Shown in pieces: positions 5,411 to 43,505 of a DNA stretch of 64,000 bases. The stretch lies in sequence record OM135583.1; one strand, written 5' to 3'. The notes under the pieces are model-generated. The model was not told the origin of the DNA, did no database searches, and saw only the letters and a program-made list of their open reading frames with translations. The translations under genes were made by a program, and so were the position numbers. Numbering within the stretch: position 1 is the stretch's first letter; each line of letters starts with the position of its first letter. The stretch is from Escherichia phage EP01.

Positions 5411-5629
5411 TTATTTCTCTAATATAAAATAAAAATCATCATCTGTTAAATGATACCGATAGTTTAATTCTACACCATTAGATTTAAAAGCGGTATCATA
5501 CGGATTTTCTGGATCAATATCAATGTCAAGAGCTAAAACTTCCCTGAGATACATTTTAAGTAAATAGGGAATAGCTTCAACTTCAGGTATTTCTTCCAAG
5601 AATCCGGAGAGGTTAATCGTTAGCCTCAT
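5411..5629 (-). CDS. Hypothetical protein
   Basis: 72-aa ORF directly downstream of gene 55. Confidence 0.6.
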
Positions 5630-6170
5630 ATAAAAAATCCAAACTAGGAGAATCGTCTACAACACTTTTCTTTTCAGCCCCTGGTGTTCTATAGGTTGAT
5701 TCTTCGTAATGCGTCATTTTATCGTAGATGTCTTGAATAAAAGTTTCATCTACTAACGCAACCATATCGTCGTCACGACTGTCATAGACATTGTGAACGA
5801 AGTAACTATATTTCTTTGCAACTTCCTTACGTTCTTTTTTAATACGTTGGACGAATGCATTAAAACAAGCTTGAGTTATATATGCATGTGGGTTTTTATA
5901 TTTCGTTTCATCAAAATTATGAAGCCCCTTAATAGAAGCTTCTATACCATCTGCAATCATTTCTTGTTTCCAGGATTGGGTGTATCCTGAAAAGTTGAAA
6001 CGTTTAGATAAGCCTTCTGCAATAAGCATAATGGCTAATCCGATAGTATCATTCTGACGAACTACTTTATTTGGGTCTTTATTATTTGCTAATTCTGTTT
6101 TCCAATCAATAATAGCTTGTAAAAGCTCTTTATTGTTTACGTAATTATATTTAGGCTTAGTTTCTGACAT
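5613..6170 (-). CDS. 55: Late-transcription sigma factor gp55
   Basis: ATG at 6170 preceded by GAGGTG SD gives 185 aa (T4 gp55 length); track start at 6176 is GTG; [21 protein letters not shown]. Confidence 0.9.
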
Positions 6171-30524: not shown

Positions 30525-31103
30525 TTAATTACCACGGGCTGCATTAGCAACGGCATAAGCGTACTGAACATTAGCGTCCTTAAACGTACCTTTAGAGGTA
30601 TCTATTTCTGCCTTAAAGCCGCCTTTAGCCATAACATCGGCAAATTCTTTACGGAAAGCCATTGCATCAAGACCTTTCCATGATGATTTGTGCTTGGCGA
30701 ATTCAAGACCAGCGTAGTTGACAGCCTTAGCTAATTTATTATCAATGACCCATTTACCGGCTTTAGGCACAAACTTCGGACCTTTTTGTTTAGAGAACAG
30801 TTTTAAATTCCAGCGACGAAGATCACTGTCGGCTTTAACAAAAGCTGCGTCTAAGTTACTAGCAACAACATCTTCAATATGAGCAAATTTAAGTCCGTCA
30901 ACTTCAATATTTAGATCGTTACGCCAGCGAAGTCCTTCCCAAGCGAAAGCTTTAAAGTCAGAAGCTTTTGTGGCTAGATATCGTTCAAGTGGAGCAGTTT
31001 TAGGGTCAAAGCCGTTTCCGCCACGATAAGTCCACTCATCTTTATTAATGCCTTTGGCCTTTACTACAGAAGCTTCAGCAATAAATTCTTGATACGTTTT
31101 CAT
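30525..31103 (-). CDS. ipIII: Internal head protein with capsid-targeting sequence (IPIII-like)
   Basis: 192 aa; N-terminal MKTYQEFIAEA capsid-targeting sequence; size and position next to e match T4 ipIII. Confidence 0.7.
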   Translation of the reverse strand: MKTYQEFIAEASVVKAKGINKDEWTYRGGNGFDPKTAPLERYLATKASDFKAFAWEGLRWRNDLNIEVDGLKFAHIEDVVASNLDAAFVKADSDLRRWNLKLFSKQKGPKFVPKAGKWVIDNKLAKAVNYAGLEFAKHKSSWKGLDAMAFRKEFADVMAKGGFKAEIDTSKGTFKDANVQYAYAVANAARGN

Positions 31104-31129
31104 TTTTGTTCCTATTGTTTTAATTCATG

Positions 31130-31447
31130 TTATTCTTTAGGGAAGTTTTTAGAGTATGCGTCATAAAGTTTATTACCGATGCGTCGGAAAACTCTAGCTG
31201 CAAAACGGTTTTCAGGGTTTTTAATCATGATTTGCATCATGTAAGTTCCTGCATCCGAAAGAGCTTCTTCATAGTACCCATTAATTTCTTTAAGAGTCCT
31301 ACGTTTACCACCAGGACCATCAACAGTAATTTTCCATTTACCTGTAGAAGTGCGACTTGGCGGCTCAACTTGTTCAATCCAGATATAACCGCCTTCTACA
31401 CGTTGTCCTTGGGCAGATTCTGCAATAAATTCTTTAAACGTTTTCAT
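31130..31447 (-). CDS. ipII: Internal head protein with capsid-targeting sequence (IPII-like)
   Basis: 105 aa; N-terminal MKTFKEFIAES; own early promoter upstream. Confidence 0.65.
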   Translation of the reverse strand: MKTFKEFIAESAQGQRVEGGYIWIEQVEPPSRTSTGKWKITVDGPGGKRRTLKEINGYYEEALSDAGTYMMQIMIKNPENRFAARVFRRIGNKLYDAYSKNFPKE

Positions 31448-31518: not shown

Positions 31519-32049
<531 letters not shown>

Positions 32050-38180: not shown

Positions 38181-38468
38181 TTACCATTTATGATAATACA
38201 TATTTACGATACATTCAAGACCCAAAGGATTCTTGAAAATATCATATTCAAGAGGACCTTTTTCTGTTTCAATAAAGAAATCAAAATTTACTGTATTAAA
38301 TTTACGGTCTTCCTTCACTAATTTAACTTGAGAAGATGAACGGTCAATGTAAACCTTTTCAACTTCAAAACATGTTAAAATGCCATAATCATCAATCAAG
38401 GCTTTAGCCGCATCTTGATCATATTTATATCCATTTTCAATGGATGATACTTTAGCGTAAAGAATCAT
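38181..38468 (-). CDS. Hypothetical protein
   Basis: 95-aa ORF. Confidence 0.55.
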   Translation of the reverse strand: MILYAKVSSIENGYKYDQDAAKALIDDYGILTCFEVEKVYIDRSSSQVKLVKEDRKFNTVNFDFFIETEKGPLEYDIFKNPLGLECIVNMYYHKW

Positions 38469-38470
38469 TA

Positions 38471-38653
38471 TTAACCTTTAGAAATTTTATCCATAACAAT
38501 AGCGATTAAACCAATTAAAAATGCTACTACAAGTGAAAAAACATTTTCTGCTGTAGTCAATAATCCGCATATAAATCCAACAAACATTGAAAAACTAAAA
38601 GCGGAAGCAGAAATTGCAATAGCAACATTTCGAATTAATTCACAACGTTTCAT
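38471..38653 (-). CDS. Small membrane protein
   Basis: 60 aa, largely hydrophobic; cassette promoter upstream. Confidence 0.55.
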   Translation of the reverse strand: MKRCELIRNVAIAISASAFSFSMFVGFICGLLTTAENVFSLVVAFLIGLIAIVMDKISKG

Positions 38654-38680
38654 TTTATTCTCCTCAGTAGTTGATAGGGT

Positions 38681-38712
38681 AATAGTATCACACTACTACC
38701 CAGAAGTAAACA
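38681..38712 (-). promoter_or_regulatory. Early promoter, internal-protein cassette
   Basis: GTTTAC (38711-38706), 18 bp, TACTAT (38687-38682), conserved UTR ...CAACTACTGAGGAGAATAAAATG. Confidence 0.6.
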
Positions 38713-38714
38713 AC

Positions 38715-38939
38715 TTATTCCGCTCCAGCAGCTTTCAAAAGCTTTTTAAGATTAGCAGTGCCACGAGCAGAAAACGTGACTTTACCATCCTTTTCACTAA
38801 TAGAGCCAGTTAACTTAGAAAGTTTATCGCTAGGAATTTTTTTAAAATCACTTAATGTACCATCAAAAGTTTTCGTAACAATTGGTAGTTCATCTTCATG
38901 TCTTTTAGCTTCAGCGATAAATTTTTGATAAGTTTTCAT
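38715..38939 (-). CDS. Internal-protein-like gene with capsid-targeting sequence (cassette 1)
   Basis: 74 aa; MKTYQKFIAEA N-terminus; own promoter cassette. Confidence 0.7.
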   Translation of the reverse strand: MKTYQKFIAEAKRHEDELPIVTKTFDGTLSDFKKIPSDKLSKLTGSISEKDGKVTFSARGTANLKKLLKAAGAE

Positions 38940-38966
38940 TTTATTCTCCTCAGTAGTTGATAGGGT

Positions 38967-38998
38967 AATAATATCACTACCCTATCTAAAAGTAAACG
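38967..38998 (-). promoter_or_regulatory. Early promoter, internal-protein cassette
   Basis: GTTTAC (38997-38992), 18 bp, TATTAT (38973-38968). Confidence 0.6.
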
Positions 38999-39007
38999 GT
39001 TTATAAA

Positions 39008-39316
39008 CTATTTTATTCCGCGTGATGCAATTGTGTTCTGCCGTTTAGCACCAGTTTGTTTAAAGTCATGATTGTCGATTTGATCGGTACGAGCAACTCC
39101 GAATGATGATTTGATTTTAGCTTTAGATCCTTTAGTTATAGAAATAAACATCTCGGAAGCCCCTTTCTTAAAGTCCGAGGCGATTACTTCAACGCCGTTC
39201 TTAGCAAGTGACCTCAGAATTGCTTCCGCATACTCATCATCAAGACCCGCTTGAGTATAAATAATGAATGTCTTTGGTGCAGCCGCTTCATTGATAAATT
39301 CTTGGTAAGTTTTCAT
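39008..39316 (-). CDS. Internal-protein-like gene with capsid-targeting sequence (cassette 2)
   Basis: 102 aa; MKTYQEFINEAA N-terminus. Confidence 0.7.
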   Translation of the reverse strand: MKTYQEFINEAAAPKTFIIYTQAGLDDEYAEAILRSLAKNGVEVIASDFKKGASEMFISITKGSKAKIKSSFGVARTDQIDNHDFKQTGAKRQNTIASRGIK

Positions 39317-39345
39317 TTTATTTTCCTAATTAATTTTGATAAGGT

Positions 39346-39377
39346 AATAGTACCACAACCCTATTTAAAAGTAAACT
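39346..39377 (-). promoter_or_regulatory. Early promoter, internal-protein cassette
   Basis: GTTTAC (39376-39371), 18 bp, TACTAT (39352-39347). Confidence 0.6.
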
Positions 39378-39649
39378 CATTTTAAATAAATTGCGTATTT
39401 TTTATAACCCGCTGACTCATGACGAAGACCCTTATCATTAGCAAAACGCTCAATGTTGTTAATTTGATTCTGGTCAAGTTCAGAGATGTCAAACACGAAA
39501 TAGTTACGTTTGTTACCAACTGTTACATAGTCAGTTAAATCAATACCATATAGGTAATTGATGTTATCAATCATAGTCTTGACAGCTTTGCTAATTTTTA
39601 CTTTTTCGTTAAAAGTAGCTTCATTGATAAATTCTTTAAATGTTTTCAT
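39377..39649 (-). CDS. Internal-protein-like gene with capsid-targeting sequence (cassette 3)
   Basis: 90 aa; MKTFKEFINEAT N-terminus. Confidence 0.7.
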   Translation of the reverse strand: MKTFKEFINEATFNEKVKISKAVKTMIDNINYLYGIDLTDYVTVGNKRNYFVFDISELDQNQINNIERFANDKGLRHESAGYKKYAIYLK

Positions 39650-39676
39650 TTTATTCTCCTCAGTAGTTGATAGGGT

Positions 39677-39708
39677 AATAGTATCACAACTAAAACCCTA
39701 TGTAAACA
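39677..39708 (-). promoter_or_regulatory. Early promoter, internal-protein cassette
   Basis: GTTTAC (39707-39702), 18 bp, TACTAT (39683-39678). Confidence 0.6.
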
Positions 39709-39725
39709 ACTTTGTGAAATATTTA

Positions 39726-40013
39726 TTACAAAAGATTTTTAGCAATAATCTTGAGATGTGCCGCAGAAATGTGTTTAGCTTTAAACAACGCAGTTTCTTC
39801 AGCAGGAGAGATAATGATTGTAGCACCATCCTTTTTAGCAGACCACCCATCACCTAGGTAAACAGTACCTTTGATTTCTTCGCCATCAACCAAACTAATC
39901 ATTGGTTTACCTTCTCGTCCTTTATTTGCTTTAATAACTTCAGAAGTAAGAGTAGCTTCAGTAATAGTAGAAACCGGGATAGTTGTAGAAGTAAATTCTT
40001 TGAAAGTTTTCAT
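39726..40013 (-). CDS. Internal-protein-like gene with capsid-targeting sequence (cassette 4; ipI position)
   Basis: 95 aa (T4 IPI precursor length), MKTFKEFTSTT N-terminus, adjacent to 57B as ipI is in T4; sequence identity with T4 IPI not verified. Confidence 0.65.
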   Translation of the reverse strand: MKTFKEFTSTTIPVSTITEATLTSEVIKANKGREGKPMISLVDGEEIKGTVYLGDGWSAKKDGATIIISPAEETALFKAKHISAAHLKIIAKNLL

Positions 40014-40042
40014 TTTATTTTCCTAATTAATTTTGATGAGAT

Positions 40043-40074
40043 AATAGTATCACTACCTCATCAGCGTGTAAACA
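40043..40074 (-). promoter_or_regulatory. Early promoter, internal-protein cassette (ipI position)
   Basis: GTTTAC (40073-40068), 18 bp, TACTAT (40049-40044). Confidence 0.6.
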
Positions 40075-40085
40075 ACTTTGTGAAA

Positions 40086-40782
<697 letters not shown>

Positions 40783-40783
<1 letters not shown>

Positions 40784-41508
40784 TATAGTACCTTTAGTGT
40801 ATTTTTAATTTTAGAAAAAAGTTCTTCAAGAGAACCATCGTTTGTAATTACTAAATCACCATCACGAATTGGCAATCCAGCTTCTGTAATATGAGTATCA
40901 TTGGATTTTTGACCAGGACGAACTACATGAATTACTGTAGCACCCATCGCCCTAGCCGCATCCATTTCATGATCTTGACGAGTATCAGGAACGATATAAT
41001 AATCATAACCTGAGTTAAATTTATCAAGATAATCTAAAGCAAATAATTTTACCCAATACATGCGGTCGAAGTTATTAACAATCAAATCCGTACCTAGGGC
41101 TTGCATCAGACGACGGACTGACCATTGATCTTCAATATTATTTATAACGTCAGCAATCTTGTTAAATGCTACGAAAGTAACTGATTCCTTTCCTTCGTCA
41201 TCAAAAACAAACACACCTTTAATTGGGATTTTACTATTAAGATAGCAAAATGCTTGTTCCATAATCGTAATTACTTCTAATTTAGTCAGATTTAAATTAG
41301 TCTCACGATCATAGTCAATTCCTTCAAACTCTTTACGAGTTAAGCAAGGATAGTCAGTGTTTGCTGCAAATACGCCCCATGCATAAGCCAATGCATCCTT
41401 AATAGGACCAGCAAGTTGATATTTAACTGCAGAATAATTATTCATGATAAAATCTGCGGTAGTATCTTTTCCACTACGCTTTACACCACTTAAAAAGATT
41501 AGTTTCAT
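40783..41508 (-). CDS. 1: dNMP kinase gp1
   Basis: 241 aa (T4 gp1 length); P-loop GVKRSGKDT. Confidence 0.93.
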
Positions 41509-43497: not shown

Positions 43498-43505
43498 TAT
43501 TTATA
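43498..43505 (-). promoter_or_regulatory. Late promoter (TATAAATA) for gene 4, divergent from gene 53 promoter
   Basis: Minus-strand TATAAATA 27 nt upstream of gp4 ATG. Confidence 0.5.

Follow-up and report, generated by a model that had tools for sequence, protein, structure and literature searches.

The ipI locus of Escherichia phage EP01 carries four internal-protein genes with capsid-targeting sequences and a probable role in counter-defence

We analysed a 64,000-nucleotide stretch of the Escherichia phage EP01 genome (OM135583.1; hereafter the window), in which the interval between 57B and trna.4 is very probably an ipI hyperplastic locus of a Tequatrovirus, encoding four capsid-targeted, injected internal proteins that act in anti-defence and were assembled into an array by cassette recombination. 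Of the elements of this reading, the identities of the genes, their motifs and cassettes, and the junctions between phages come from the present analysis; for the function of the targeting sequence, cleavage by gp21, injection and the activity of IPI it relies on the T4 literature. The array is a well-described variable internal-protein locus of a T4-like phage, and a textbook phage counter-defence hotspot; it contains nothing new in kind, because published phage genomes already carry an identical array. As the original prediction had noted from the sequence, four consecutive small genes encode proteins of 74, 102, 90 and 95 aa, and all four open reading frames were found on the minus strand. 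The gene order is 57B, ipI, ip9, ip7, the 74-aa ip gene and trna.4, with the following features:

40086..40541, minus strand: 57B, upstream border of the locus, Acb1-family anti-CBASS phosphodiesterase (Pfam PF23474 Acb1 at 2.6e-60)
40014..40085, minus strand: cassette preceding ipI; 40044-40073 is the early promoter GTTTAC-N15-TGA-TACTAT, with a hairpin spanning its -10 element; 5′ UTR subtype TTAGGAAAATAAA
39726..40013, minus strand: ipI, internal protein I, 95 aa (Pfam PF11634, PDB 2JUB, PHROG 4363)
39650..39725, minus strand: cassette preceding ip9; promoter 39678-39707, 5′ UTR subtype CTGAGGAGAATAAA
39377..39649, minus strand: ip9 allele, 90 aa (RB15 Ip9 identity, PHROG 7673)
39317..39376, minus strand: cassette preceding ip7; promoter 39347-39376, 5′ UTR subtype TTAGGAAAATAAA, weak hairpin (fold z about 0)
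39008..39316, minus strand: ip7 allele, 102 aa (T2 Ip7 identity, PHROG 2667)
38940..39007, minus strand: cassette preceding the 74-aa gene; promoter 38968-38997, GAGGAG 5′ UTR subtype
38715..38939, minus strand: fourth capsid-targeted open reading frame, 74 aa (PHROG 8765)
38654..38714, minus strand: fifth cassette, driving trna.4 and no ip gene; promoter at 38682-38711, GAGGAG 5′ UTR subtype
38471..38653, minus strand: trna.4, 60-aa hydrophobic membrane protein (PHROG 1692 at 2.6e-34)

The ip genes lie between 57B/Acb1 and trna.4 with the tRNA cluster, a position identical to that in T4 and T2. The product of trna.4, annotated in T2 and UFV-AREG1 as 'Trna.4 predicted membrane protein', has no targeting sequence, and its gene marks the downstream border of the variable locus. 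A second ip locus of the Ip2/Ip3 type is located separately at 30525-31447. The four mature proteins are small (64-92 aa) and basic (pI about 9.0-9.7) and, as had been proposed, unrelated to one another past the targeting sequence: pairwise global alignment scores were negative, and the proteins belong to four different PHROG families, each represented in 107-290 phage records at 80-99% identity. Ip7, Ip9 and the 74-aa protein had no significant match in Pfam and none in PADLOC. Searches against T-even ip variants placed all four proteins in catalogued internal-protein families, three of them with published names. Since the families are catalogued and the array is already present in UFV-AREG1 and KIT06, the suggestion that the four genes form a new, diversified set of payloads was rejected.

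The 95-aa gene is ipI itself rather than a new payload. Its product consists of a 19-residue propeptide (MKTFKEFTSTTIPVSTITE/A, the stroke marking the cut) and the 76-residue mature IPI*; residues 20-95 match Pfam PF11634 IPI_T4 at 2e-53 (178.7 bits against a cut-off of 25) and are identical at 75 of 76 positions to 'Internal protein I' of PDB 2JUB. Relatives occur in 290 phage records. The T4 and window proteins share their length, the 19-residue propeptide and the place of the gene beside 57B, but their mature parts differ by a single conservative Val-to-Ile substitution. In addition, ipI stands alone in T4, with one copy between 57B and trna.4 as the original prediction had stated, whereas three further ip genes follow it in the window. 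T4 IPI* is known to block GmrSD, a type IV restriction enzyme, in its E. coli CT596 form; from its near-identity to this protein, window IPI would be expected to inhibit GmrSD restriction of glucosyl-hmC DNA.

All four proteins begin with a capsid-targeting sequence: MKTFKEF in IPI and Ip9, MKTYQEF in Ip7 and MKTYQKF in the 74-aa protein. According to the published determinants, targeting depends on residue 4 being aromatic, residue 7 being Phe, and residues 8 and 10 for processing (PMC9026906); on inspection, all of these were present in the four proteins. At the DNA level, the motif ATGAAAACNTWYMAARAATTT occurs six times in the window against 0.01 expected, four of them at the ipI locus and two around 31 kb, in the second ip locus. 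In an IMG/VR scan for this motif, the matches listed were mostly single and probably chance occurrences in AT-rich contigs, which makes the scan unusable as a census. A gp21 site, (L/I)-x-E with a small residue after it, is predicted from sequence in each protein. The I-x-E-A site of the original prediction is found at residues 8-11 in the 74-aa protein (IAE/A), Ip7 (INE/A) and Ip9 (INE/A) but not in IPI, in which ITE/A at residues 17-20 would be cut after residue 19 instead; this I-T-E/A site fits the 76-residue mature IPI*. By analogy with T4, the N-terminal targeting sequence would dock each protein into the scaffolding core of the prohead, and its propeptide would then be removed by the prohead protease gp21, which cleaves (I/T)-x-E sites behind the Glu. 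The basic mature proteins would remain in the head with the DNA and, because they would be injected along with it, would reach the cell before any phage gene expression. Accordingly equipped with targeting sequences, Ip7, Ip9 and the 74-aa protein are presumably packaged in heads.

The original prediction had given each gene its own promoter/5′ UTR cassette, and the pattern GTTTAC-N15-TGN-TAYTAT was indeed found upstream of every ip gene (the window has 10 matches where 0 are expected, five of them in the ipI locus). However, positions 38655-40085 hold five cassettes rather than four, the fifth driving trna.4, and the quoted 5′ UTR CAACTACTGAGGAGAATAAA precedes only two of the four ip genes. 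There are two 5′ UTR subtypes, with CAACTACTGAGGAGAATAAA in the 74-aa and 90-aa genes and CAAAATTAATTAGGAAAATAAA in the IPI and Ip7 genes. The hairpin of the ipI cassette has a 13-bp stem (-14.8 kcal/mol, z = -3.9). The longest stem averaged 8.1 bp in 32 ip-locus cassettes, compared with 4.1 bp in 15 other early promoters; over 16 cassettes, 87% of stem cells were paired, as against ≤ 64% when the partner was slid, and six pairs were changed on both sides. These hairpins are not intrinsic terminators, because they lack a T-run and a scan returned no terminator-like site. No late-promoter consensus was seen directly upstream of any of the four ip genes; all five promoters are of the early type, and the sequence by itself does not account for a supply of internal proteins at the time of prohead assembly.

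The combination that characterizes IP-locus elements, a T4 early promoter with an AT-rich stem-loop repeated between ip genes, is thus present in five copies. It resembles the PeSL elements (Arbiol et al., 2010; PMC2839356) in that short, repeated intergenic units of promoter and hairpin flank non-essential genes and offer homology for modular shuffling. Unlike the PeSLs of RB49/phi1-type phages, which pair a sigma-70-like promoter with an adjacent GC-rich stem-loop acting as terminator, the ipI locus has T4 early-type promoters and AT-rich hairpins that overlap the -10 element instead of lying ahead of the promoter, and does not carry the PeSL combination. The PeSL authors likewise regarded IP-locus elements as analogues and not homologues (PMC2839356).

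Comparison with other phages supports cassette-mediated shuffling, with junctions within the cassette and at ATGAAA. The same four-gene array was found in UFV-AREG1, where the products are annotated as internal proteins, and in KIT06, whose locus is 99.6% identical to that of the window. The number of ip genes at the ipI locus is one in T4, two in T2, three in F13076, four in UFV-AREG1, KIT06 and the window, and 0-2 in 36 IMG/VR loci, so that four is the highest among the loci compared. Specifically, the T4 ipI-to-trna.4 intergenic region corresponds to the window ipI-to-ip9 region up to ATGAAA with 1 nt different, and the T2 ip7-to-trna.4 intergenic region is nearly identical to the window region between ip7 and the 74-aa gene. 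F13076 carries an ip9-ip7-ip74 block (ip74 being the 74-aa gene) without ipI, and the cassette between ip5 and ip7 of T2 is chimeric, changing from one type to the other at the -10 element. Very probably, an arrangement of the T4 type, with ipI alone, and a block of the F13076 type (ip9-ip7-ip74) were brought together by homologous recombination in the ~60-nt early-promoter/5′ UTR cassettes and the common ATGAAAAC... gene starts.

Such shuffling at the ip locus was proposed by Repoila et al. (1994), as cited in PMC2839356, PMC4122927 and PMC3012670, and more than 30 T-even ip variants are given in PMC2839356 with reference to Comeau et al. (2007). As far as these citing papers describe them, the polymorphic T-even ip loci (Repoila et al., 1994; Ip4-Ip13 and others) share with the window a varying number of unrelated small basic proteins that have only the targeting sequence in common, as well as the 57B-to-tRNA site flanked by repeated early-promoter and stem-loop elements (PMC2839356). 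Window Ip7 and Ip9 are named alleles from that work, and the locus does not differ in kind from the loci it describes.

Ip7 combines the targeting sequence MKTYQEFINE/A with a basic mature protein of 92 aa, is 93% identical to annotated T2 Ip7 (PHROG 2667 at 3.6e-41) and has relatives in 283 phage records. When folded without an alignment it gave a poor model (pLDDT 61.5), which was left out of fold searching, and an exhaustive search of representatives for remote homologues yielded four clusters only. One of these, containing a 1005-aa membrane protein with EYEEYI repeats, was rejected as an Ip7 homologue, the match being a spurious one to the targeting sequence. In phage OLB35, we observed a chimeric Ip7::Ip9 remnant without a targeting sequence. 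The 74-aa protein consists of MKTYQKFIAE/A and a basic mature protein of 64 aa; it matches PHROG 8765 'internal virion protein' at 1.4e-26 and is 100% identical to an annotated hypothetical protein of phage EP01. Its relatives (107 phage records) come mainly from Klebsiella and Escherichia T4-like phages, and no consistent ip number was found for it.

Some of these genes could be decaying passengers of cassette recombination that are no longer expressed, packaged or useful in EP01. The KIT06 copy of the 74-aa gene is frameshifted, which makes the gene dispensable at least in this closest relative, and the OLB35 remnant and the degraded hairpin of the Ip7 cassette (fold z about 0) point the same way. 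We nevertheless consider decay improbable in the window: its four open reading frames are all intact, as are the targeting sequence, Shine-Dalgarno sequence and promoter of each, and every family is conserved, with 107-290 phage records at 80-99% identity.

The original prediction of a capsid-targeted, injected set swapped through common cassettes is borne out by the cross-phage junctions and the literature; an anti-defence role for Ip7, Ip9 and the 74-aa protein is what we infer beyond this. Silas et al. (2025; PMC12373910) showed that Ip1, Ip2 and Ip3 of T4 are inhibitors of one GmrSD enzyme apiece, a different one in each case, and predicted that other proteins of the Ip locus have targets of this class. 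By analogy, Ip7, Ip9 and the 74-aa protein would most likely each neutralize a further defence of the first-response kind, with other variants of the GmrSD family as the most probable targets. They share with T4 Ip2/Ip3 the delivery logic of targeting sequence, packaging and injection and the prediction of one type IV restriction variant each (PMC12373910), but no common sequence; likewise, neither sequence nor fold similarity to Ip1 was found for the three proteins. IPIII is active without its targeting sequence when supplied inside the cell. Following the 2025 result for Ip1-3, the three proteins are obvious candidates for a GmrSD screen.

Alternatively, Ip7, Ip9 and the 74-aa protein might be mainly structural or physico-chemical parts of the head, i.e. 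basic counter-ions that aid prohead core assembly or DNA condensation and have no specific host target. All mature forms are small and basic (pI about 9.0-9.7), each T4 head contains ~360 copies of each internal protein, an IPIII mutant shows slower head assembly and a smaller burst (PMC9026906), and lysines of internal proteins touch DNA phosphates (PMC3012670). However, IP genes are dispensable on laboratory hosts (PMC9026906), all three T4 internal proteins have specific GmrSD targets (PMC12373910), and siphoviruses that lack a T4-type core encode the payload of Ip9 as a free protein of 72 aa. Moreover, the mature sequences are unrelated and vary among close relatives, so that an arms race fits better than a generic charge role. 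A mainly structural function is, in our view, very unlikely.

Ip9 comprises the targeting sequence MKTFKEFINE/A, a short linker and a payload domain of ~72 aa. It is 87% identical to 'Ip9' of phage RB15 (UniProt Q38376), matches PHROG 7673 at 3.6e-54 and has relatives in 182 phage records; its AlphaFold model (pLDDT 89) matched no known inhibitor fold in the fold search. Outside the T-even phages, the domain is ~50% identical to early proteins of Kagunavirus and Seuratvirus, siphoviruses in which it occurs as a free 72-aa form without a targeting sequence and is encoded by the first gene of an early operon. No known anti-defence families were found among the gene neighbours of these homologues. 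The domain is also ~31% identical to the C-terminus of a 755-aa Kuttervirus protein, which has no relative in Pfam or PDB and whose adjoining genes are annotated as structural.

None of the Kagunavirus, Seuratvirus and Kuttervirus phages is known to make glucosyl-hmC DNA, and the occurrence of the Ip9 domain in them argues against a target strictly specific for this modification. The payloads might then be injected effectors against targets other than GmrSD, in other defences or in host takeover, and the locus a mixed toolkit instead of a set of inhibitors of GmrSD subtypes. The neighbouring 57B is Acb1, an anti-CBASS enzyme, so the region gathers several kinds of counter-defence, and Alt, which is also packaged, is a host-takeover enzyme (PMC9026906). 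On the other hand, the Ip-locus proteins tested so far, three of three, act against a GmrSD enzyme with strict one-to-one specificity (PMC12373910), and enzymes of the GmrSD/DUF262 family vary widely and might act against DNA that carries other modifications. Overall, we regard a mixed toolkit as rather unlikely and GmrSD-family variants as the more probable targets.

More tentatively, the Ip9 payload could be a portable anti-defence domain with three modes of delivery: packaged via the targeting sequence in T-even phages, made as a free early protein in Kagunavirus and Seuratvirus, and carried as a C-terminal domain in Kuttervirus. If so, the target of Ip9 would be a defence common to enterobacteria rather than a glucosyl-hmC-specific enzyme, and T-even internal proteins would have been recruited by adding a targeting sequence of ~10 residues and a linker to existing early anti-defence genes. 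That siphoviruses have the Ip9 payload free of a targeting sequence, and Kuttervirus has it as a C-terminal domain, may be a new observation, and such homologues in unrelated phages provide a route to the Ip9 target outside the T-even system.

The ipI locus was analysed over window 38400-40600 on the minus strand, and four consecutive ORFs that open with a capsid-targeting sequence were found at 38715-40013, as originally predicted. The genes of the locus and its downstream neighbours, in transcription order, are:

40086-40541, minus: 57B, 151 aa; Pfam Acb1 (anti-CBASS phosphodiesterase), 2.6e-60
39726-40013, minus: ipI, 95 aa
39377-39649, minus: ip9, 90 aa
39008-39316, minus: ip7, 102 aa
38715-38939, minus: 74-aa ip gene (ip74), 74 aa
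38471-38653, minus: trna.4, 60 aa, hydrophobic, without targeting sequence
38181-38468, minus: trna.2, 95 aa
36793-37470, minus: SegB-like GIY-YIG homing endonuclease gene, PHROG 314, between tRNA-Arg and the other seven tRNA genes

Since 57B, usually labelled 'RNA ligase' or 'hypothetical' in records, matches Acb1, the ip array directly adjoins a second counter-defence gene. Beyond trna.2 lies an eight-gene tRNA cluster, interrupted by the endonuclease gene. SegB is reported to promote segmental amplification of the adjoining anti-defence tRNA locus in a 2026 paper that makes no mention of the ip locus (PMC13096335). The window lacks trna.3, trna.2 following trna.4 after 2 nt (38468-38471); T4 (L164 3919-4329), UFV-AREG1 and KIT06 carry a trna.3 of 126-136 aa between the two.

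The four ORFs begin with MKTFKEF (ipI and ip9), MKTYQEF (ip7) and MKTYQKF (74-aa gene). Capsid targeting is determined by residues 4 and 7 and processing by the prohead protease gp21 by residues 8 and 10 (PMC9026906); these determinants were found in all four proteins. The I-x-E-A motif expected after the targeting start is present at residues 8-11 of the 74-aa protein, Ip7 and Ip9 (IAE|A or INE|A), but IPI has ITE|A at residues 17-20, yielding the known 76-residue mature IPI*. At the DNA level, the 64-kb window contains six copies of the motif ATGAAAACNTWYMAARAATTT (0.01 expected), four of them at the ipI locus. The other two copies, at ~31 kb, open ORFs beside the lysozyme gene:

30525-31103, minus: 192-aa ORF, PHROG 5341 'internal virion protein', IPIII-sized, starting with the targeting sequence
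31130-31447, minus: 105-aa ORF, PHROG 3966, starting with the targeting sequence
31519-32013: lysozyme gene e, adjoining this second ip locus

With both loci counted, the number of capsid-targeted proteins encoded in the window rises to at least six.

Protein searches, which the original prediction had called for, named the products. The 95-aa protein is, judged by its sequence, IPI itself: residues 20-95 match Pfam PF11634 (2e-53), and 75 of these 76 are identical in 2JUB, the solved structure of IPI*. The 102-aa protein is Ip7 (93% identity to annotated T2 Ip7), the 90-aa protein is Ip9 (87% identity to RB15 Ip9, UniProt Q38376), and the 74-aa protein falls into PHROG 8765 'internal virion protein', with 100% identity to a hypothetical protein of phage EP01. 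Among 50,697 phage records searched, relatives were found in 290 for IPI, 283 for Ip7, 182 for Ip9 and 107 for the 74-aa protein. After the targeting sequence the proteins are indeed unrelated; the mature parts share no similarity, and all are basic and 64-92 aa long (pI 9.0-9.65).

The source of the region is a Tequatrovirus (99.6% identity to KIT06, 95.3% to UFV-AREG1 across the locus), and the exact four-gene array is already in public genomes. UFV-AREG1 has the same genes in the same order, labelled as internal head or virion proteins. KIT06, the closest relative, also has all four, but a frameshift disrupts its 74-aa gene, which is annotated there as a 42-aa ORF (L003 1847-1975) and is intact in the window (38715-38939). 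T4 carries ipI alone, in agreement with the original prediction, T2 carries ip5 and ip7, and F13076 has ip9-ip7-ip74 without ipI. Four Mosigvirus-like IMG/VR genomes (L011, L012, L014 and L015, ~5529-6032) have the order 57B, 74-aa ip, 90-aa ip9; unlike in the window, their ip genes lie 1-2 nt apart with no cassette between, and the order differs as well.

Intergenic regions aligned across the window, T4, T2 and F13076 bear on how such arrays arise. The T4 ipI-to-trna.4 spacer equals the window ipI-to-ip9 spacer but for 1 nt as far as ATGAAA, after which the genes diverge; likewise, the T2 ip7-to-trna.4 spacer equals the window ip7-to-ip74 spacer up to the gene start. The F13076 ip9 is attached to another 5′ UTR, and within the T2 ip5-to-ip7 cassette one type gives way to the other at the −10 element. 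These matches and switches thus place the junctions in the promoter/5′ UTR and at the shared gene start, and the window array reads as T4-type and F13076-type arrangements united. The proposal of a diversified set swapped by cassette recombination is supported by these alignments, yet this model is not new, being credited to Repoila et al. 1994 in PMC2839356, PMC4122927 and PMC3012670. Overall, the observation holds with corrections, and its interpretation was already published.

Several corrections concern the cassettes. Every intergenic space (60-76 nt) contains GTTTAC-N15-TGN-TAYTAT, a T4 early-type promoter with extended −10 element, which was matched 10 times in the window (0 expected), five of these matches falling in the ipI locus. 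Each ip gene does have its own cassette, but there are five rather than four, the fifth (38654-38714) serving trna.4. Two 5′ UTR subtypes are distinguished 3′ of the −10 element: CAACTACTGAGGAGAATAAA in the cassettes of trna.4, the 74-aa gene and ip9, and CAAAATTAATTAGGAAAATAAA in those of ip7 and ipI, so that, of the four ip genes, only two fit the consensus originally quoted. In the Shine-Dalgarno region (38654-40085), the three former cassettes have GGAG, and ipI and ip7 have AGGAA. The T4 RegB endoribonuclease cleaves preferentially at GGAG, and the subtypes may therefore differ in early mRNA decay. None of the ip genes has the late-promoter consensus TATAAATA immediately upstream; on the ip strand, its nearest copies are at 41139-41146 and 43498-43505.

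Four of the five cassettes can form a stem of up to ~16 bp across the −10 element (−14 to −16 kcal/mol, z ∼−3 to −4); in the Ip7 cassette this hairpin is degraded. Among the ip-locus cassettes of the window and related loci (32 distinct ones), the longest stem averaged 8.1 bp, versus 4.1 bp in 15 other early promoters sharing the same consensus. In 16 cassettes of one register, 87% of cells were paired versus ≤ 64% with the partner slid; the paired percentage is inflated, as these cassettes were selected for having their best stem in that register. Six of 12 stem pairs in this set changed on both sides, and the covariation score (0.301 versus 0.185 for shuffles) was reached by none of 500 shuffles. 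The expected transcription start is downstream of the 5′ arm, which would restrict the hairpin to read-through RNA or single-stranded DNA. It may serve in attenuation, processing or recombination; a terminator scan returned none, and the hairpin has no T-run.

In T4, the internal proteins join the prohead core and undergo trimming by gp21; at ∼360 copies each they stay beside the DNA and are injected (PMC3012670, PMC9026906). The four proteins here would follow the same route, from core entry via the targeting sequence to trimming and injection with the DNA. IPI* inhibits GmrSD of strain CT596 (T4 literature); Ip2 and Ip3 counter two different variants of GmrSD without cross-protection, and further variants were predicted as targets of the remaining Ip-locus proteins (PMC12373910). 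By analogy, Ip7, Ip9 and the 74-aa protein would be packaged and injected, each against a GmrSD variant; family, defence-database and fold searches gave no sign of activity for these three. The remaining value of the locus lies in these payloads and in the broader spread of the Ip9 domain.

The Ip9 payload (residues ∼20-90) has ∼50% identical homologues that begin at their own initiator Met, without targeting sequence, in Kagunavirus, at the head of an early operon, and in Seuratvirus. A more distant copy ends a Kuttervirus protein:

L160 2504-2722 and L161 2492-2716: Ip9 homologues, 72-74-aa early proteins of Kagunavirus and Seuratvirus
L163 3778-6045: 755-aa Kuttervirus protein with Ip9-like C-terminus, adjoining genes annotated as structural

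Residues 678-737 of the latter are ∼31% identical to the payload (PHROG 7673, 2.4e-8). Ip9 homology begins immediately after propeptide and linker, so the 'targeting sequence plus payload' design is seen directly. This occurrence outside T-even phages may be a new observation. The Ip9 structure, predicted with confidence (pLDDT 89), is a helix-strand-strand-helix-strand-strand domain and resembled no inhibitor among solved structures. An OLB35 'ip7 protein' (P0017, 77 aa), also without targeting sequence, is a chimera of Ip7 residues 29-80 and the Ip9 C-terminus (24-32 residues), apparently left by deletion or recombination between neighbouring ip7 and ip9 genes.
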